DNA of 64,000 nucleotides from Octopus vulgaris (lineage: Eukaryota), in assembly GCA_951406725.2 (NCBI GenBank), contig OX597814.1, positions 133,796,001-133,860,000 of the forward strand. The letters are read 5' to 3'. Positions 2,484 through 59,414 of this stretch are shown one piece after another. Both the position numbers and the translations under genes were made by a program. The notes beneath the pieces were generated by a model, which was not told the origin of the DNA, ran no database searches, and was given only the letters and a program-made list of their open reading frames with translations. Position 1 is the stretch's first letter. Every line of letters begins with the position of its first letter.

Positions 2484-3206
2484 AAATATACACCTATCAC
2501 TAGCCCAACAGTAAGGAAAAGGAATAATAGAAATAGGAAGGTCATCTGGTTTACGCCCCCTTACTCACCCGAGGTGGCCTTCAATATAGGTAAATATTTC
2601 CTAGCACTGATAGATAGACATTTTCCAGTTAACCATACTTATAGGAAACTCTTCAATAGACACAATTTAAAAATTAGTTTTAGATCAACTACCAATTTTA
2701 AAAACATAATCAAACATAACATACAAAAAACACAACAACAAAACAGCTGTTCATGCAGGAATAAAGAATTGTGCCCGCTAAATGGAGCTTGCATGTCCAA
2801 GACCATCATATATGAAGCTACCGTAAACTCTATAACCACTAAAGACACCGTTTCGACGAAGAAATACGTGGGCCTTACAGAGGGTAATTTCAAGGCCAGG
2901 TTCAATAACCACACTTTGAGCTTTAGGAACTGGAACAAAAGAAAAGCGACACAATTATCTAATCATATTTGGTATTTAAGAGATAAAGGTGTCGATTATA
3001 ACATACAATGGAAGATTTTGGCCAGATGTAAGCCCTATACTAACGGCAGCGGAAGGTGCGGTCTATGCGACATGGAGAGATGGCTTATCTGGAAAAGCAG
3101 CTTAGACCCTACTACATGTCTAAATACAAGGACAGAGCTTTTCGGATCATGCCCACATGTGACTAAATTTCTGTTACGTTTTTGGTCCCCTAAAGAAAAC
3201 AGATAG
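2484..3206 (+). CDS. Penelope-like linker + GIY-YIG endonuclease (truncated C-terminal part of ORF)
   Basis: Open frame from 2484: RKVIWFTPPYS..V..NIG, CSCR....CPL.G.C, IIYEA...YVG.TEG.FK.RF.NH, LS..IW.L, C.LC..E, LN.R.EL...C.H. Confidence 0.85.
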   Translation, partial: KYTPITSPTVRKRNNRNRKVIWFTPPYSPEVAFNIGKYFLALIDRHFPVNHTYRKLFNRHNLKISFRSTTNFKNIIKHNIQKTQQQNSCSCRNKELCPLNGACMSKTIIYEATVNSITTKDTVSTKKYVGLTEGNFKARFNNHTLSFRNWNKRKATQLSNHIWYLRDKGVDYNIQWKILARCKPYTNGSGRCGLCDMERWLIWKSSLDPTTCLNTRTELFGSCPHVTKFLLRFWSPKENR

Positions 3207-4014: not shown

Positions 4015-4628
<614 letters not shown>

Positions 4629-4799
4629 TATGGCCCGTCGTTGGCGGGTCATAGTGCTAGTGCATGTATATATGTGTATATATATGTGTACATATTACAT
4701 GTACATCTATATATATATACATCTACACATAAAATACAAAATACAAAGTTATATCTTGATATTGCTAGTGATAACAATACTCAAAATATATAACAGACT

Positions 4800-5111
4800 G
4801 GAATTGTAAGCTCGTCTCTTGCAATTTCGATCAATTGTATCTTGTCCTCCCTCTTTTATAGAAGTGTGGCTACAATCCAGCCTACCTCAACTTCGGGGGG
4901 AGGGAGCATTTTTTATTTTTATCCTGCACGACCTACGTCCCAGATATAAAGGTAAAAATAAAATATTTCCACTTTGTAAGTTCGAGTTGAGTACTCCCTT
5001 GCACGCTCCTTTGACTCGAACCTTGCTTCTATTGTGGCGAATTTACCGCCTCTGGTTAGATATCTTTCATAGTCGCACCAAGACACTTTTCGATAGTGCT
5101 TTCCTCCAGGT
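4800..5111 (-). pseudogene. Degenerate Tx1-like ORF1 fragment (element C)
   Basis: With frameshifts reads 'NLEESTIEKCLGATMKDI / YLTRGGKFATIEARFESKERARE / FLPLYLGRRSCRIKIKNAPSPEVEVGWIVATLL', homologous to ORF1 of the two neighbouring elements (IEKCLG, RGKKFGTVEVR, PSYKGRR, NIPPEV..EW). Confidence 0.75.
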
Positions 5112-5357
5112 TGTTTTATTATTACCCACAAGGGGCGAACATAGATGGGACAATACAATCTGATGATGGGGTCAGACAAACGAATGGGTTTTTACAATAA
5201 ATCGGATTTAAAAATTTTCATGAATTACAATAAATGGACAGAAATCGAATGATGGGACAGACCGGAAGACATTACGGGTGGAGTGGGTGCGGGTTTAGCT
5301 CGGACCCCACGAGCCCCGCCTCCCCACTGATACTTTTGGTTGCGCTTGGTATTACAT

Positions 5358-8300
5358 TTATGTTGTATCTTTCACTCGCAACTTTCGTGCTACATCCTTC
5401 CATCGTTCTTCATACACTCTCCTAGTCAGGCATATTCTCTCCAGCCCTATCTTCCTTTTCAGGTGAAAGATGAAATACTTCATCAAACCAGGGCCGGAGA
5501 TGAACTTGCCTGACTGTAAACCTTTCATTCTCGTCTTCCATATCACCTCTTTCGCAATTGCTACTACAACGAGAAAACGAAACTTACCTTCATTCACGAG
5601 GAAATCCGGTGGGTCAATTTTTGTAATCGACTCAGTCGACAGCTGTACTCTTCGTGTACCTGACAACAGCTGTTCGGCATAAACCCACACCTCAGACACG
5701 TCCGGACAATGAACAATAGCGTGCGGGACGGTTTCCCTATCCCGCCCGCATCTTGGACATATCGGACTGTCTTGGCCACCGTGCCTTGCGAGTTTATCCC
5801 GAACAGGTAGAGCTCCTCTGTAGCATTGCCATGCCAGAGACTTCTGGAAGTTGTCCAGTGTCCTCGGCTCGAACGTACGTCGGAACAGACTGGCCAGCTG
5901 ATTATCGTCGAGACCTAGGGTTTCCCCCAAGGTATCTTCACATTCCGCCTCAACCAACCCTCTATAGAAGAATGTGGTGGAACCCCCACCGCAGGCGTTG
6001 CCCGAGCGACGGAATAGCAGGAGAGCCTTGCGACACTCCGTGTACCAAGTACCAAGTTTCGATCTACGATTCAGCCAGGTTTCCCATCCACCGAAACTAG
6101 TGAACTTGGGAAACATCAGTTTTGCTAGCGAAGACCACACCCGTTCACCATCCAGGTAGACCACAGATGTCTTAACCTCAGCGCATGTCTGCGCATCATC
6201 AGCCAAGGCATCCCTAGCCCACCCTTTAACGGTTGTTGACAGCAAGTAGAGCGTTTCACAAGTGGTTTCCCGCCCTTCCACAAGAAGTAGAAGAGCTGTC
6301 TTTCCAACTTGATCAACCACGAATCAGGGCAAGGAACGACGGAAAGGCGGTAGGTGATAACCGATGCGATAAACACATTGGCCACCTCCGCCCTCCCTTT
6401 CAGGGATAGCCACCGCCAAGACCAGGTCTTGGCTACTGCAGCCACCTTGCTCGTTACCTCGCCCCAATTCTTCTCTATTTGGAGGTCTGGACCGAACCAG
6501 ACCCCTAGCAGTTTAATCGGACCCTCCGTCCAACGTCCCACGACGCTGTCAGGAGGCATCGACTTGCCTCTCCAGGTGCCGAGTTGCAAGCCGACTGACT
6601 TTTCGCGATTAACTTTTGCTCCTGTCACCGTCTCGTAAACCTCTATGGCCTTGCCTACTTTACATAGGTGGTCCATTTCGGTTACGATGATGGTGATGTC
6701 ATCCGCGTACGCTGACACTGATTTTCCATTACCTGGCTGTCTCGGGATGCCGCTCAGTTTTCGCAGTAATGGCTCAAGAGCCATCACGTACAAAAGCGGG
6801 GAGAGCGGACACCCTTGACGAACCGAGTGTTTGATTTTGAACGGCTTCGACAAGAAGCCGTTCACCCGAACTACCGAGTCGATGTTATCATAAATTTGGA
6901 TAATCCACCTGAGGAAGCCAAGGCTCAGCCCGAACTGTGCCAGGGCAGCTACCAGGTAACGATGGTCGACCCTATCAAAAGCTTTAGATTGGTCTAAATG
7001 GACCAGTGCCCCACCCTTGCCAGAATCACTATTAAACCCCTCTATAGTGTACCGCATTAGATGGAGATTATCCTGAATGGATCTGCCCGGAACGGCACAT
7101 GTCTGTGCCTCTCCGATCAGACCATCCGCGACACGCGCCAATCTTTTCGATAACACTTTGGCCAAAATCTTCAACTCTGTGTTTAGCAGAGTGATGGGCC
7201 TGAAATTATCAATGCACTCCCCCTTGCTCGGGTCCTTTCTGACGAGAGTCACTACTCCCCGGCGCACAGATCTGGGTATAAGCCCGTTCTGCTGCCAGTT
7301 CGCATAGACCTCCGCCAGTAGGTGCCCGAACAAGTCTGGCATACTCTTATATAACTCATAGGGTAGACCATCCAAACCCGGCGCCTTGCCCGCGCCGCAG
7401 TCCGCCATTGCCTCAACCACCTCCTCAGGCGTGATTGGCCCTTCACAGCCCTCCGCATCTCGCCCCGATAAGCGCGGCAGACCGTCGAGGAGGTCCGTAA
7501 AGGCCCTCCTCCTATCCAGTCCGCCGCACTCACCGAAAAGCTGAGCGAAGTGCTCCTGAAAGGCCTCACACATCTCCTCGGGTTCGTTTATCAACTCACC
7601 TTGTTGGTTCGTCAAAGATCGAATCGTGGCATCGTTACCATGCTGAGCTTCCACCACTCGGGCCCATCTCACGGCGTTGATTCCTTCACATCCCATATGA
7701 CGGATTCTAGCCCTGACAATGCAGCCCATGTGTTTGGCCTCGAGGTGCTGGTTTAACACCAGTCTCTTGGACGCCACCTGAGCCGCAGAGCCAGTTTTCA
7801 TGGCTTCCTCTAATTCCTTAACTAGAGTAGTTTCCCTTCTAGCCTCTCTAGCCACTACTCCTATGCTATATCTAATAGACTCAAACTTGATGGCTCGTTT
7901 GAGGGCGTACCACCATTTGTTATTAATGATGGTACCAGATAGTGCCCTCTGAATTATATTCCTAATCCGGTCTTTGTACTCCTTAATCGCCAAAAGGGAC
8001 GTATTAAGTTTCCAGTAACCGGATCCTCTATTTTTAACCTTATCTATGTCAAGCTTACAAGTGACCATTTTATGATCACTGTAGCTGATCGGGTAAAACT
8101 GTGGACACTTAGCTATTTTACTGTCTACTTTTCTAATTAGTATTCTATCTAAATATGACCTGGAAGATCCGTCGCTGTTTGACCATGTCCACAATGGAGC
8201 GTTCGGAAATTCCAGCCTATAAGGATCTGCTAGCTCAAAGCGGCTTAGCAGTTCCATGAAGCCACTGTTGCCTTTTCTATCTGGACGCGAGCCAACACAA

Positions 8301-8752
8301 TCTACATCCGCTTTGCAAATTGTGTTAAAGTCTCCTAGCACCACTAATGAATGCGAAGTACCAAGAAAGTTTTCTAGTTCACGAAAATAATCACTTTGCC
8401 CTGTATGGTTGGGTGCGTAAATTGCAACCAGTCTGATAACTTTACCATTACTGAACGTCAAATCCATGACGACCAGCCTACCTTCTGGATCTGCAAAAAT
8501 TAACTTTTTCTCAGAAACCCGGTTTCTTTTTAATAGGACCAACACCCCACTCCCGCCTGTAGGACTGCCAGGAGAGAAAAAACTCTCGTAGCCGTCAAAC
8601 AGCGGGAGTAGACCTCTTGGCCCCTCTAACCGGGTTTCTGTAGCAACAATAACATCTAAATTACGCGACCTGATATCATGCAGGAAGCGACCTTGCTTCC
8701 AGCCTGCTCCAAGGCCGCGCACATTCAAACAACCAACATAAATGTAATCCAT
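5358..8752 (-). pseudogene. ORF2: APE endonuclease + reverse transcriptase + C-terminal cysteine motif; one frameshift near 6165
   Basis: APE motifs LNVRGL, ETRL, GDFN, SYLDRIL, SDH; RT motifs KAPGLDG, FRPITLLN, DQSKAFDRVDH, VRQGCPLSP, YADD; C-terminal CPRC...ETVPHAIVHC in a second frame. Confidence 0.93.
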
Positions 8753-8760
8753 TACTTACC

Positions 8761-10142
8761 TTATATCAGTGGTTCGGTTTTCTCTTGTTCTTCTAACTCT
8801 TTTTCTGGGCCTCGTGGGGGAGTCTGACGTAGGCCCTCGAATATATGTGGAGATGTCACATCCAATCTAAGTGGGCCTACGTCATGGAAGAATTCTGACT
8901 TTATCCGCCCGTAATCCTTCCGGCCTATTCTGTAAATTACAAAGTCGTTTTTTTTTCACTACTTTCTCCACTTTGGCCATGGCTGCCAACACGTTTCCGA
9001 GTCTGCTATTTGCTGCCTTTACGGCCATATACGAGTTCATTGACTCTTTTTTCTTTTTTAAAATTACTCTGGGAGGGGTGGTTTCCGTTTTTCTTTTTTT
9101 TTTTCCGGTAATGTTTGCCCACCCCTCCTCATTTATCTTTTCCTCGCTCTTTTTTTCCTCCGCCGCTGGTTCTGCTGTCACCGTCACCTCCACACCTTCA
9201 GTCTTCCCTTCTGGGCCGTCCGACGCTGCTTCTGGTGACACATTATCTTCTTTTTCTTTTGGCTTTGGTGCTTCCTGCGGTTTGGGTTGGGGTTGGCATT
9301 CCGCCCTTACATGACCCTTCTTGCCGCAGCCGAAGCACCTCGGCTTCCTGCCCTCCACGAAAACTGTTATTTTCTCGTCTTCACTAATCTTTACCGTTTC
9401 TGGAATTTCTTCCAGTGTTTGCACCTCCGCCTGAATGGCTATCACTATTTTCTGCCCTTTCCAGAACTCCTCTTCCTCCACTGTGGCCTGGAGGATGTTT
9501 ATTTTTTCCTCCAGACCTACCATCACTGCTGCCACCAGACATTCAGCATCTGCCTCTGGCGGTATGTTGTTCATTGAAATTTTCGACGTCCTTTTTCCTT
9601 TATACAATGGTAGTAAGACAATGTTTTCCGCTTTGATCGGCTCCATCGATAGTTTCTTCGCTATCTCCTCCGTAGTAAAACGCACCTCCACTGTGCCGCA
9701 TCTTTTTCCTCTGTTTATATACGTTATTTTATCCATAAAAGGTTTTAGACAAAACTCTATTTTTTTTTCTTCGATTTTTTGGATCATTTTTGTCGTTGTG
9801 TCGTAAGTTTTATATATTATTCTTTTTTTTTTCTATCTCGTCATGTTTTTGTATGTTTGTGGCCACAGTCACTTCTGTGCCTTCTTTTTTTACACAGTCT
9901 GCAAATTTTCCAAAATTTTCTATATTTATTTTTTTGATCTTTTTCCCAGCCACTTCAGCGAATTTTTTTGCTGGAGTTGATGCTGGTACTGGTTTTTCCA
10001 TTTTCTTGGGCGACGCCGCCTCTTTTTTTCTTCGGCGACAACACCTCTTTTTTTCTTGGCGACAACGCCTCTTTTTTCTTGGCGACAACGCCGGGTATTC
10101 ATCCTCGCTCGTCACGGGCGAATAAGAGATGGGGGACTCCAT
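8761..10142 (-). pseudogene. ORF1 (gag-like nucleic-acid-binding protein, zinc knuckle), frameshifted
   Basis: Segments 10142-9810 and 9787-8882; CFGCGKKGHVRAEC zinc knuckle; lies directly upstream of ORF2. Confidence 0.85.
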
Positions 10143-10369
10143 CTTGAACAAATGGCTTTAACAAGCCTTTGGTAAATCCAAATTAATGGTAGTTTTCCCC
10201 CACTGAGGGGGGAACACCAACGCGAAGTCTTCGCGCGAAGGCTGACTTCGTCAGTTAGACAACAATAGACAAAACAGGTAGACCAACAGTATATAATAAC
10301 AGAGATAATAGTACGAGAGCAAAAATATATCAACTTACTAATAACGCAAAAAATTGATTTCCTCCAGGT

Positions 10370-11948
10370 GATTTTATTACTACCCACAAGGGGCCAACAT
10401 AGATGGGACAATACAATCGGGGAACTTAAAATAAGAAAGCGAATGACAAGAAAAGGAAAAAATAAAAGTAAAAAATGACATATGAAAGAATATTTACAAT
10501 GAGATGTAAATGCCCACTCGATCCCCGGAATCGAGAGGTTACATTTTCGTCACATATATTTCACAAAATTTTCTTTTTTCTCTTCTTTCTTCTCTCTCTT
10601 CTCACAATTCTATACATATTCCATAATAGCTTTCAATTCTCTAAAGTCCATCACTGAGCCCTCAGGCAGCCGCTCTCTCACTCGAACACTCGTGTAAAAT
10701 ATTACACTCTCTCCGGCAGCTCTGAGGAACTCAGCGACTCTTTCTTCGGGGATTAGAGCAGTCTCCTGCCACTGATCGGTCATCCTGTTGACCCATATAT
10801 GTCCCTCCGTATTACATGTCAAGTCTTTCATTTCAGGGCAGAAATGGAAGGTTACTAACTTGTAGAAGCAGTAATCTTGTTTCCGTCCTACGTTTTCCTT
10901 CATTTTTCTTTTCGGGCTTATTTCTTCCTTGTTCTCCTCTCTTTGTTTCTCTCTTTCTCTCTTTTTGCCTTCTTTTCTTTCTCCTTCCTTCTCTTGTCTT
11001 TTTGGTTCTTTGTCTGTTCTCTCTTTCTCTCGTGTTTTATGTTCCTTTTCTTTTTCTTTTTGTGTGCCGTCTTTTCTTTTCGTTTGATTCTGATCTCTCT
11101 CTTGTTTTTTTCCTGTTGTTTCTTTTTCCTTTTTTTTTCCTGACTCTGTTTTGGTTCTATTTCTTTCTTTTCTTTTATTTCTTTTTCCTTCATTGACTTA
11201 TTATTTCCTTTCTCTTGTTGTTTTGTTTCCTTTTCTATGTTTTCTTTTTCATTTACCGTATTCTTCTTTTCTTCAAGTTCCTGCTCGCACTCCGCTACGA
11301 ATTCGTATAACGGGCACTCTTTTTTAATGTGCCCCCTTGTCCCACACAAGTAACAGTTTGGTTTTCTTCCCTCTACAATTACACTGAGGGTTTTTTCATC
11401 TTCAATTTCAATTCTGTAGGGGAACCTTTCAATGTCCTCTTTTGTGGCCATCAAACACAGTTCTACCCCATATCCTCTCCAGTTTACCGCGTTGGACTCC
11501 TTAAAGGATTCCACCTCCACTTCCTCTTCTGCTGCTCCTAGAATAGCTGTTGCCAGCCATTCTGTTTTCACTTCTGGGGGTATATTCGGGATTTTAACCC
11601 GGACCCCTCTTCTTCCCTTGTATGAGGGCCACATTGTAAATTTTTCGGCTCTTAGTACAGTGGTAGCCAGTGAAGCTGCAATTTCTTCCGTTGCACATCT
11701 CACCTCCACCGTACCAAATTTCTTGCCTCTACTCACGTAGGTTGTTTTCCCCATTATGTCTCCCAGACATTTTTCAATTTCGGCTATCTCCACTCTTGCC
11801 AGTTTCTTCGTATTTTTGTCTTGGGTTCTGTATGTCACTGTCTTGCTTTGTTTGTTCTCTTTTGCTTTCGCGGGGGGGATTAGCTTCACGCTATCACCCT
11901 CCCTTTTGAAGAGCTTTTCATATTCTTTGAGTTTATCCTTCTCAATTT
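10370..11948 (-). mobile_element. ORF1-only (HAL1-like) non-autonomous Tx1-related element (element A), 5'-truncated
   Basis: ORF1 homologue (CYLCGTRGHIKKEC), then a K/E-rich region and a 97-aa segment, ~190 bp UTR, and the same 3' tail as element B. No APE/RT motifs between ORF1 and the tail. Confidence 0.75.
10610..11945 (-). pseudogene. ORF1 of element A (zinc knuckle), frameshifted in the lysine-rich tract
   Basis: ORFs 10918-11889 and 10610-10903; shares VEGRKP.C..CG..GH...EC with ORF1 of element B. Confidence 0.75.
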
Positions 11949-12199
11949 TATATCACTTGCTATTTTTACTTTTGTTATGATACGATTATATTATACTTTA
12001 GTTTGACTTTAATTATTATTTACTACATATAATTCAATTGTTATTATTATTTTTATTGTTAAAGTGAAAGTATCTGACATAAAATAGAGAAATGTTTTTG
12101 TTTCACTTTTAACACGTAATACTGAAATAGTGGAGAAGATATGATATTGCTATAGGCTCGCTCTAGGCAAGAAGTTGAACATTTTTTGCCGATGACACT

Positions 12200-12315
12200 C
12201 CCCGGAACCTAAGTAAGGCGTGTGTAAAATTTGAATGAAATTGGTTGTGTAGTTCTCAATTTTTAGGGAAACACGCAGACAGACAGACACACATTCTCAG
12301 TTTTATATATATAGC
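12200..12315 (-). mobile_element. 5' end fragment of non-autonomous Helitron-like repeat
   Basis: AAATTTGAATGAAATTGG...ACAGACAGACACAC...TTTTATATATATAG resembles the ends at 50700-50766 and 52560-52629. Confidence 0.4.
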
Positions 12316-13544
12316 GATATATACATACATATATACATATACATCCACGCGTGTGAACGCGCGCACGCGCGCACACATACATAGGCACGCATTTATATCA
12401 TCGCCATGATAATATAAGATTATGCTCTTTCTCCAGCAGGTAGTGTTCGAAATTTCGCAAAGTGTATTTTACTATTTCTCTTTCCTTTTGTGTTTGCGAC
12501 ATAGGAGTATCTTTCCACCTTCTGATCACCAGTCTCATTGTCGTAAGCAGCAATTACTGCAGACAAGTAGATATTCTTTTTTTAGCTATATTCGAATTTG
12601 GCACAGGGTGGTTTTCTGAAAATAGATGCCTTTTGAAGTGGTTAACATGACCGACATGTCAATCTATAACATGAATGGATTTTGATTATAACATCGCTAA
12701 CAACCTATTCGTACAGCTCGTTAAGGTAATAAAGAACCAAGGATTAATACCATTCCTAGTTTCTCTGGCAGTGATCCATATATTCCACTGCAGGACGACT
12801 CCTGTGGACAGGGGTATCGCGCAATTACCATACCCCGCCACTTAGTTGGTCTTGAAAACAAGATACATTATCCCATCTGGGCTTCCACCACTACTGGCAC
12901 ACTGAAAATCCTTTCAATTTATAATAAAGTTATGCCACCTTTTCTTTTTGCCCCTTTCTTGATAGAGTTGACAAACATAGAAGTAGAAGCCTTCGTACCA
13001 CATTATTCCACAGATTCTTTTCATTTTAAATGCTGTCTGATATTCAGAATTAAATTTTACAGGCAACTTTTACATCAAATTTGCTATTTTCATTATAGTC
13101 CTCCATGTTGCTGCTTACTGTTTGTGAAAGTCATTTTTTCAGGTTAGTGTAAATATTTATATTTAAAAAGAAAAACACCATCCTTACCGTCCACTGTTTG
13201 TAGAATTTTCATTCTTTTCAGTGTAAATGTTTATACTTTCTTTATACACACACATGTAATCGTATTTAGAAATGTTCAATCGTATTAGAAATGTTCAAAG
13301 ATTTCTTCAAAATTCTTGCCGCTAACCCAAACGGAGTAGTAGTATTTAAATGACTTTTTTAAAACAAAGAAATGTTTTAAAAATTAAATATATTTTTTAA
13401 AATGTAGAACATTTCTTCCTAAGGTAATCGAGAAAAATCCAGAGTTCTTAAGTATAAATATTTTACAGAGCGAAAAAAGCACGTTCGGTAGGAGAAAAAG
13501 CAAACAACAATATCAACAATTAAAAACAATAATAATAAGAATAA

Positions 13545-13742
13545 TGATTCCAAACTTTGGCACAAGGCCAGCAGTTTCGGGAAGGGGTAAGTCGATTGCA
13601 TCGCCCCAGTATTCAAATGGTACTTATTTATCAACCTCAAAAGGATGAAAGGTAAAGTCGACCTCAGTGGAATTTGAACTCAGAATGTAAAGACGGGCGA
13701 AATACCGCCAATCGTGCTAACGATTCTGCCACATCACTACCT
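13545..13742 (-). mobile_element. tRNA-derived SINE, family B
   Basis: Minus strand A-box TGGCAGAATCGTT, B-box GAGTTCAAATTCC, central GAGGTCGACTTTACCTTTCATCC...GATAAAATAAGTACC; tail GGCCTTGTGCCAAAG. Confidence 0.8.

Positions 13743-13834
<92 letters not shown>
13743..13834. repeat. (TAA)n microsatellite
   Basis: Direct inspection. Confidence 0.95.
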
Positions 13835-13836
<2 letters not shown>

Positions 13837-14540
13837 TAAGGACCACCTTATCTCTGGATGTAAAGTCTTAGCACTAGTGGAGTATAAATTAAGACATGAC
13901 AGAGTTGGCCGATATCTACACTGGCTAATAAGTCGGCATTACAATATCAAAACTGCCGACAAGCGGTATAACCACCACCCTGAAGCTGTAACTGAAGGAG
14001 AAAATGTAACCATTCTGTGGGACTTTCCAGTACATACAGACCGAACCATCAAAGCCAATAAACCAGATATTGTTGTGAAAGACCAAAACAATAAAGTGTG
14101 CTTATTGATCGACATGAGCGTCCCCTGCGATCATAATATCTCGGCGAAAGAGTTTGACAAGCTCAGAAAATATAAAGACCTGCTCATTGAAATTGAGAAA
14201 ATGTGGCATCTCAAGGCGGTTACAATACCAGTGATCGTAGGAGCACTAGGAATGATCAAGAAGGGAACCGAAAATTATATGAGAATGATCTCTGGCTTAC
14301 CATCCCTGCAAGAAGTGCAAAAGATTGTCTTAACTGGTACATCACACGTATTGAGAAGAGCTTTGTCGATGTGAGAACTATTACTACCCATGTATTTTAA
14401 TTTAAGTTTTAAAAAAATGAACGAACTATTGAGTTTAGTTTAATGGCCTACCAATGTATACTATGAGTTTCTTTGCACTAGGAGTCGGGAAGACACTCGG
14501 CAAGAAATGGAAGCAAATTTGAAAGAAGAAAAAAAAATAA
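13835..14540 (+). mobile_element. 5'-truncated R4/Dong-clade non-LTR element (restriction-like endonuclease C-terminus) in (TAA)n
   Basis: HLISGC...Y..RHD, ILWD...TDR...ANKPDIVV, LIDMSVP, K..KY.DL, IPVIVGALG; ORF ends at 14374; TAA repeats on both sides (established Dong target). Confidence 0.88.
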
Positions 14541-53350: not shown

Positions 53351-53420
53351 AATACATTCTCTGCTTTGGTCATATGTTGAAGGCATGAGAAAGCTTGAGT
53401 TTACATGAGAAGGCCTAACA

Positions 53421-53898
53421 GACCTGGTAGAAACAGCAGCCAAATCTCCCTCAAATCACACCTTACTGTCTTATGTATGTATATATATATGAGCCAATGA
53501 GGGGGACCTCTACATGGTAGCTAGACCTGGTAGAAATAGCAGCCAAATTCCCCCAAATCACACCTTACTGTCTTATCAATGTATATATGTATGTATGAGC
53601 CTATGAGGGAGACCCCTACATGGCAGCTAGACCTGGTAGAAATAGCAGCCAAATTTCCCCCAAATCACACCTTACTGTCTTATCTATGTATATATGTATG
53701 TATGAGCCTATGAGGGAGACCCCTACATGGCAGCTAGACCTGGTAGAAATAGCAGCCAAATTTCCCCCAAATCACACCTTACTGTCTTATCTATGTATAT
53801 ATGTATGTATGAGCCTATGAGGGAGACCCCTACATGGCAGCTAGACATGGTAGAAATAGCAGCCAAATCTCCCTCAAATCACACCTTACTGTCTTATC
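53421..53898. repeat. Minisatellite, ~107-bp unit x ~4.5
   Basis: GACCTGGTAGAAATAGCAGCCAAAT... recurs at about 53421, 53524, 53630, 53737 and 53844. Confidence 0.95.
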
Positions 53899-58069: not shown

Positions 58070-58274
58070 GTGTGTGTATGTGTGTGTGTGAGTTGTGTGT
58101 GTGTGTAAACTCTTGTATGCAGAGGCTTCAGTGTAAAGAAGAAGAGAAAAAAGAAGACAATATGCTGAAACAGTGCAAAAATATATTGTATATGTTAAAC
58201 GACAGGTTTCAATTTCGTAACTCTCATAAATATCAATTCCAAATATTGGCAGAAGACCAGTAGATTTGGAGAGG

Positions 58275-58430
58275 GAGTAACTCGAATACATCGACCCCAC
58301 TGCTCAATTAGTATTTATTTTATCCCGCCCCCAAGTATGAAATTCTAAGTCGACGTCGGTGGAATTTGAACTCAGGACGTAAAGACGGACGAAACACCTT
58401 TAAGCATATTGCCAGGCGTGCCAACAATTC
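58275..58430 (-). mobile_element. Older SINE family B copy, cut within its A-box
   Basis: TACATCGACCCC...AAGTCGACGTCGGTGGAATTTGAACTCAG...TGCCAACAATTC. Confidence 0.75.
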
Positions 58431-58657
58431 TTATTTCTTTAATACCCACAAGGGGCTAAACACAGAAGGGACAAACAAGGACAGACAAACGGATTAAGTC
58501 AATTACATCGCCCCCAGTGCGTAACTGGTACTTAATTTATCGACCCCGAAAGGATGAAAGTCGACCTCGGCGTAATTTGAACTCATAACGTAACGGCAGA
58601 CGAAATACGGCTACGCATTTCGCCCGGCGTGCTAACGATTCTGCCAGTTCGCCGCCT
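58431..58657 (-). mobile_element. Full-length tRNA-SINE family B with Tx1-like 3' tail
   Basis: Head GGCGGCGAACTGGCAGAATCGTTAG, B-box GAGTTCAAATTAC; tail TTGTCCCTTCTGTGTTTAGCCCCTTGTGGGTATTAAAG matches the 3' end of elements A and B. Confidence 0.88.
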
Positions 58658-59414
58658 TTATAACACTTATAAATATTAACATAAACTTTTTTTAAAAGAT
58701 TAAATAGATATATTGTAACAAACAAAACAGTTCTTGTCTCTAAGAAATTCCCGCTTATATAATTCTTTTGGATGATTTTGAAACTGAAGATATTCGTTTC
58801 AGTACCTAGAAAATGTTAATGCATATTCTCAATTCTCTAAATATTTTTGATTGATGACAATATTGATTATAACTTATTACCAAGCGACATAAATTCTGAA
58901 GTTTGAGAGAGTTGCCATTCTGCTATATATCTATATTATAAGAATATTTGAAGCCGATATTATATAATATATCTACTCGATATAGCACAATGTTTATGAG
59001 GGACAGTATGTATTTTCAAATTTGACTCAAATCCTACAACATATCTGTTTTTCTCTTTCTCGCTGAATAGATATGAGGGTGTAACATGTTTTCCACTTTC
59101 AAGTAGGTTCCAGAAACTCATTCCGAAGTGTGATATATATATGAGTGTCTTTAATATTCTTTTCTCAAACTATCCACAACGCGCAGGTGGTCATTTGCAT
59201 GGTTTTAGAACTTGATACACTTATAAAAACACAATTTTCTTTCTCTATTACATGGATTGATATTTATATCATACGTTATTTACCTCTGGTCAATATATCT
59301 TTCTATCATTCTTCCTCTATATCACCCTTTTCCCTTGTACTTCACTGTGTATGTGTACGTGTGCGTGTTTGTACGTGTATATGTGTGTACGTATGTATGT
59401 ATATATACACATAT

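Follow-up and report, generated by a model that had tools for sequence, protein, structure and literature searches.

Here we describe a stack of long interspersed nuclear elements (LINEs) in a 64-kb stretch of Octopus vulgaris DNA (contig OX597814.1, positions 133,796,001 to 133,860,000, hereafter the window). Read along the minus strand, the stack consists of element A, a copy of the 12-mer ACCTGGAGGAAA, element B, a second copy of the 12-mer and fragment C (Table 1). This is the head-to-tail layout that an earlier note on this DNA had proposed, and we find the same order, with two copies of the 12-mer in the 64 kb. The note had spoken of three Tx1-like elements; the stacking stands, but what is stacked is one full element (B), one element that carries only the first open reading frame (ORF1; A) and one old fragment (C). 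Both copies of the 12-mer are exact, lie on the minus strand and adjoin the 3′ side of a tail that is common to A and B. No further match was found within the window with up to one mismatch allowed, and in shuffled sequence a mean of 0.17 matches is expected by chance.

Table 1. Features of the LINE stack and of the related SINE-like tail (positions count from the first base of the window; UTR, untranslated region; SINE, short interspersed nuclear element)
Feature	Position	Strand	Basis
Element C, decayed middle piece of a third-family ORF1, three frame changes, one in-frame stop	~4805..5111	-	profile, protein alignment, tree
Right 12-mer copy, encodes (N)-L-E-E-(S) of C ORF1	5100..5111	-	exact repeat; tree of relatives
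Element B, full-length L1-superfamily LINE, probably Tx1-clade	5112..10357	-	ORFs, Pfam, protein comparison
3′ tail of B, terminating in ...TAATAAAACA and without poly(A)	5112..5160	-	alignment with A tail
B ORF2: APE endonuclease, reverse transcriptase, C-terminal zinc domain	5358..8752	-	Pfam PF03372, PF00078, PF13966
B ORF1, CCHC knuckle, two frameshifts relative to P0011	8782..10142	-	Pfam, protein comparison
10/12 near-copy of the target within B ORF1, non-homologous position	9505..9516	-	pattern match
12-bp target-site duplication of B, left-hand copy	10358..10369	-	exact copy of C-native 12-mer
Element A, 5′-truncated ORF1-only LINE derivative (CCHC-knuckle ORF1, ~200-nt 3′ UTR, tail)	10370..11955	-	Pfam zf-CCHC; protein matches; no ORF2 homology
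A 3′ tail, 45/49 identical to B tail, ends ...TAATAAAATC	10370..10418	-	alignment
A ORF1, lacking its start and frameshifted once within the charged A-rich stretch; last residues ...IMEYV*	10610..11949	-	ORF and protein comparison
Tail of SINE-like repeat, ~82% like A/B tail, without the 12-mer after it	58428..58478	-	local score 71 vs shuffle maximum 51.5

Element B comprises a 5′ UTR, an ORF1 with a CCHC knuckle and an ORF2 with an APE endonuclease, a reverse transcriptase (RT) and a zinc domain. The N-terminal part of ORF1 contains a 25-bp tandem repeat (3.8 copies, 10001-10092), the period of which is not a multiple of three. ORF2 is interrupted by a single frameshift near 6160 and has no premature stops over 873 + 263 codons; B is therefore young. 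In a comparison with 15 matching sequences of solved structure, among which the only full-length ORFs are those of L1 and R2, B ORF2 aligns with human L1 ORF2p over residues 3-862 (E 2.6e-65), and R2 proteins match it at 1e-24 or weaker, in the RT part only. The ESM Atlas returns generic endonuclease-RT clusters for B ORF2. Having an ORF1, an APE/RT/zinc ORF2 and an ORF2 nearest to that of L1, B is, as judged by its sequence, an L1-superfamily (L1/Tx1) retrotransposon of the non-LTR (LTR, long terminal repeat) type. It likely belongs to the Tx1 clade, with which we take its CCHC ORF1 and its lack of poly(A) to be compatible. Also relevant to this assignment are the active LINEs of O. vulgaris: the only L1-type class among those given in Table 1 of PMC13282606 is L1-Tx1, with 13 families.

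Element A is a LINE derivative of a different kind. Queries with ORF2 against the window match only B, leaving the copy of A at this locus without an ORF2. Its homology to ORF1 is significant up to ~11950, which marks the point of 5′ truncation, and downstream of the ORF1 stop at 10610 the tail begins after a further ~190 nt. A ORF1 matches nine O. vulgaris predicted proteins at 82-100%, and its last 162 aa are identical to P0176 and identical at 161/162 positions to P0174. IMEYV forms the C-terminal end in 18/18 of the A-family proteins compared (five more, diverged or frameshifted, were omitted). Given this common end, the A family is young and multicopy, and it is likely a non-autonomous, ORF1-coding family of the HAL1/HeT-A kind, the ORF1-only status being seen in one copy and extended from it to the family. 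At the level of annotation only, five consecutive accession numbers each correspond to an A ORF1, with no number to spare for an ORF2 model.

A separate observation concerns a conserved 89-aa ORF (P0166) found on 9 contigs, which precedes A-type ORF1 as a fused part of four O. vulgaris gene models; the proteins concerned are P0166, P0169, P0170, P0182 and P0003. It aligns weakly, end to end, with the C-terminal domain of A ORF1 (22/1000 shuffles score as high). The 89-aa ORF was not found in the window, and a search of the ESM Atlas with it returned nothing. This ORF may represent the final part of a sibling element in a stack upstream of A; it may also be a 5′ module that full-length A carries.

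The tails of A and B, neither of which has poly(A), are identical at 45/49 bases, and the similarity of the two junctions extends over 64 bp (10355-10418 vs 5097-5160, 92%, E 4e-20). A third match to the 14-bp core of the tail lies at 58443-58456, within a SINE-like repeat (58425-58660, minus strand) whose similarity to B continues into the B 3′ UTR. This repeat has a tRNA-type head and is presumably an octopus SINE. It runs directly into a second, 5′-clipped related SINE (58274-58431) with a different tail. As far as these sequences can tell, the SINE-like repeat and a Tx1-type LINE are candidate partners; the accessible parts of PMC3747384, PMC4758252, PMC3531059 and PMC8967140 name no LINE partner for an octopus SINE. 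As to structure, the tail offers a 4-bp hairpin alone, with no covariation across the three sequences, and eight words taken from its translation have 0 occurrences in the 160 proteins compared. Tail patterns also gave 0 matches in metagenome and viral contigs, which probably contain no octopus DNA and are therefore uninformative on this point.

The 12-mer can be traced to fragment C, which is ~310 bp long. No upstream half, knuckle or ORF2 of C was found in the window. The ORF1 cores of A, B and C are 39-43% identical in pairwise comparison (43% for A and B). As the earlier note had claimed, the 12-mer is read in frame as part of C ORF1, and the C reading NLEESTIEKCLG is in register with KIEEKKIEFCL of B and RVEIAEIEKCLG of A. 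A profile of the ORF1 core retrieved 481 relatives at E ≤0.001, the best 150 of which were used in the analysis. The 96 domain rows that span 80 or more of the 110 columns were combined with A, B and C (99 rows), and an IQ-TREE tree was built after the five alignment columns touched by the 12-mer had been taken out. Despite this removal, C clusters with P0033, P0026 and P0021 with a bootstrap of 100. At the removed columns, [LF]EE[SN] is present in 3/3 of these C-clade relatives versus 1/71 of the other rows that have those columns. The note had suggested checking whether the 12-mer is native to an uninterrupted C-type ORF1, and P0033 is such a case: the protein reads through the site as QLEESTIEKC, nine residues of which are the same as in C, directly after the RIVYKTY family block. 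The 12-mer is thus native to C ORF1, and this is our firmest result.

Under the alternative that the same note had raised, the 12-mer would be the end of the common 3′ tail, and its fit to the frame of C would be fortuitous. This would explain why the 12-mer follows the tail in both LINE copies. However, the chance of finding [LF]-E-E in the register of C is ~3e-4 at ORF1 base composition, the motif is present in the three nearest relatives of C, and the SINE-like tail lacks the 12-mer; the tree and the SINE-like tail together nearly exclude a tail origin. Since the 12-mer is native to C and a second copy precedes the 5′ end of B, the repeat is the target-site duplication (TSD) of B, one copy on either side of the element, in line with the original proposal. 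Much the same low probability attaches to an assembly chimera, in which unrelated repeat copies would have been joined at the common tail. The near-identical 64-bp repeat at both junctions would lend itself to such an error, and frameshifts at A-runs suggest read errors, but a misjoin at the tail would not place a C-derived 12-mer before the 5′ end of B, and the two tails differ at 4/49 positions. We also looked for a duplication framing the whole A-B-C block and rejected it: the longest common word is 10 bp, a length equalled or beaten in 32/300 shuffles.

The target is a relative of the inserted elements at some distance. C falls into a subclade of its own, and at the 12 bases homologous to the target 8/12 match in B and 6/12 in A. 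Neither A nor B carries its own target at the position of insertion, as a Zepp-type self-targeting element would, and this therefore is cousin-targeting rather than self-targeting. The relation of target to inserters is that of a sister lineage and not of an own family, and the ‘self-family’ specificity put forward earlier was an overstatement. A protein search with the open frame that spans the B/C junction yielded no candidate among proteins of 49-158 aa. Elsewhere among the relatives, the O. bimaculoides gene model P0094 has two ORF1-core stretches, suggesting two related elements in tandem.

Relative to the 12-mer, the 3′ ends of A and B differ in position by 0-2 nt, in support of the claim that the two inserted at the same nick. 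At this one locus, two families and two junctions, as independent insertions with a TSD taken from the target, coincide at one nucleotide, a coincidence that speaks for an endonuclease with a sequence preference. The site was used twice whichever of A and B came first, even if A-12mer-B was copied as a read-through. On the bottom strand the nick reads AGGT/GA, which does not fit the L1 endonuclease consensus TTTT/AA given in PMC1950540. We therefore favour, with a probability of roughly one half, recurrent targeting of C-type ORF1 by a B-type endonuclease, whereby B inserted in full length into the old and distant LINE C and A inserted at the same spot.

We infer the following sequence of events. 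The B-type ORF2 protein would bind the 49-nt RNA tail common to A and B and introduce a bottom-strand nick at the 12-mer's 5′ edge, from which it would prime reverse transcription. Cleavage of the second strand 12 bp away would create the 12-bp duplication, and the duplication would restore the site, allowing the next element to stack head to tail. The B-type endonuclease would likely carry both elements to the site, with A being mobilised in trans. Either A or B may have come first; alternatively, the A-12mer-B unit may have been copied in as one read-through of a stack built likewise elsewhere.

The site preference could also be of another kind. If a short purine-rich motif such as CTGGAGGAAA were preferred, C would be an incidental dead fragment and the duplication would have regenerated the motif for a second hit, an explanation that we consider less likely even though it accounts for the locus equally well. 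Any preference in combination with a TSD gives dimers, as described in PMC5932611, and PMC4494074 reports a preference for (TC)n, (TTC)n and (TTCC)n in some Tx1 groups; at the present locus, the sequence of the bottom strand is TTTCCTCC. The same explanation draws on the age of C, of which no close copy was found among the proteins searched, on the different flank of the SINE-like copy with its similar tail, and on the 10/12 near-copy of the target within B itself. The window holds three exact matches to CTGGAGGAAA, all in the B block around 9505-9516. On the other hand, the nick lies 4 nt away from the purine run and not inside it, and in a genome of 2.8 Gb two hits at the same nucleotide would be rare for a motif loose enough to be common.

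The sole route that involves no site preference is the landing of B in the A-rich tail of A. In this case A would have landed in C by chance, and an L1-like T/A preference would then have brought B into the tail, producing a duplication of 18 bp, the first bases of which have since changed. At a distance of 6 nt from the junction, the A tail ends in TAATAAAA, a site of L1 type, and the endonuclease loop of B has the length of that of L1. However, two adjacent changes (TC vs CA) would have to fall exactly at the boundary in a young B with 0 stops in 1,136 ORF2 codons. Moreover, TAATAAAA aligns with the end of the independent SINE-like tail and is therefore part of the element. We regard this route as improbable.

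The annotation of O. vulgaris provides indirect support for stacking. Accession numbers are assumed to follow chromosome order. The 22 O. vulgaris accession numbers of A-family ORF1 models (three diverged relatives were omitted, as were two numbers from a different series) include 9 neighbours that are ≤2 numbers apart, compared with no more than 2 such neighbours in any of 100,000 random draws. The members of 6/9 neighbour pairs differ in sequence, as expected from the stacking of independent copies, and those of 3/9 are identical proteins.

Several observations weigh against recurrent targeting of C-type ORF1. The evidence comes from one locus with two 3′ junctions. Within the window, both the 12-mer and the upstream half of C are absent 5′ of A, and a deletion therefore has to be assumed. 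Consistent with this absence, the 160 proteins compared have no match in the window outside 4780-11990, bar one unrelated segment of a chimeric model, and upstream of A an extended ORF1 profile scores ≤2.6 bits, against a background of up to 6.9. For the Utopia elements, 5′-truncated copies without the upstream target are on record in PMC4640811. One of the three tail matches in the window, that of the SINE-like repeat, is flanked by sequence other than the 12-mer. The search of proteins turned up no close copy of C, its best relatives being at 50-57%, so that C may be too rare or too old to be a useful target. The endonuclease loop of B aligns without gaps to the 9-residue loop of L1 between the anchors T192 and S202, and the extended Tx1L-type hairpin loop of 11 residues is not present in B. 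According to PMC1950540, this loop has 11 residues in both Tx1L and TRAS1, and its length is no strict marker of specificity, the loop of the specific R1Bm being shorter than that of L1. Finally, the three identical neighbour pairs may be isoforms, and the clustering of accession numbers carries no information on the DNA between the copies.

In a wider and more tentative version of recurrent targeting, a guild of elements would share one 3′ tail: autonomous B, its ORF1-only parasite A, as a Tx1 counterpart to HAL1/HeT-A, and the tRNA-SINE. The B endonuclease would have evolved to cut a single site in the ORF1 of the sister lineage C, which B and A lack at the corresponding position, with mixed, TSD-spaced stacks arising genome-wide, and the A/B pair would both knock out and colonise cousin elements.

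The surroundings of the stack contain further traces of mobile elements. An open frame of 240 codons at 2484-3206 (plus strand) has a weak GIY-YIG match below the cut-off (E 0.022) and is probably a Penelope-like fragment. By eye, we take 12100-12330 (minus strand), upstream of A, to be a Helitron-like 5′ end, and ~4625-4665 (plus strand), downstream of C and on the opposite strand to the former, to be a Helitron-like 3′ end with a hairpin and CTAG. The 217-codon open frame at 13721-14374 (plus strand) resembles the terminal, restriction-like endonuclease part of a retrotransposon of the Dong/R4 type; it has no Pfam match above the cut-off. A tandem repeat with a unit of ~105 bp at 53400-53760 (plus strand) contains four copies of ACCTGGTAGAAA, which is 10/12 like the target.

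If targeting of C-type ORF1 proves to be family-wide, the coding sequence of a sister LINE would join RNA genes, microsatellites, DNA transposons and LTR elements among the targets of Tx1 elements, and the octopus would offer a case of direct conflict between related retrotransposons with a defined 12-bp site. Such a result would also supply a derivative of Tx1 elements with ORF1 only and, to an octopus SINE, a candidate LINE partner. Should only a short motif be preferred, the locus would be an ordinary TSD-spaced stack. PMC13282606 describes 13 active L1-Tx1 families in O. vulgaris and, in its accessible part, does not discuss their insertion targets. Outside subscription papers, Repbase and the consensus library that PMC13282606 has on Zenodo, our literature search brought up neither this octopus site nor a Tx1 family that targets the ORF1 of a sister LINE.

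The locus is a real TSD-spaced stack with a C-derived target site, and as such it is a variation on the known behaviour of Tx1 elements. PMC4494074 lists Tx1L of Xenopus in Tx1D (piggyBac), the crocodilian Tx1-Mar in Mariner-N4_AMi, Tx1-8_Crp and Tx1-4_AMi in LTR elements and Tx1-9_AMi in Harbinger, as well as tandems of SINEU-3 spaced by the TSD. Like these transposon-targeting systems, the octopus stack has an APE-RT LINE at a fixed place in an older transposon with a TSD of similar length, a non-autonomous partner on the same site and TSD-spaced tandems. Unlike in those systems, the target is the ORF1 coding sequence of a LINE of the same group, and specificity is read from one locus, whereas the families of PMC4494074 are judged target-specific when >20% of their flanks are of one target type. 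ORF1-coding non-autonomous LINEs are represented in PMC5786205 by HAL1 (L1), HeT-A (Jockey) and Ag-Sponge (CR1), with no Tx1-derived case among those covered there. A resembles them in having only ORF1, a LINE-type tail and a young multicopy family, but it shares with its likely partner B only the 49-nt tail and 43% identity in the ORF1 core, unlike HAL1, HeT-A and Ag-Sponge. In the R1 arrays of Drosophila, as described in PMC5932611, double insertions leave a TSD in the junction of the tandem and TSD-spaced dimers are common. The head-to-tail arrangement with a copy of the target duplication in between is the same here, but the target of R1 is the 28S rDNA, and in the octopus two different families occupy one site. 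A further parallel is that of Zepp and ZeppL, green-algal LINEs of the L1 clade that insert into LINE copies already present (PMC8226300, PMC3446292). Here as there, a LINE of the L1 superfamily enters existing LINE copies, and nested or tandem clusters of 5′-truncated elements result; however, while the target of Zepp is Zepp itself, with a single cluster on each chromosome, the octopus target is a family whose ORF1 is ~40% alike, and neither A nor B has the site at the corresponding position.

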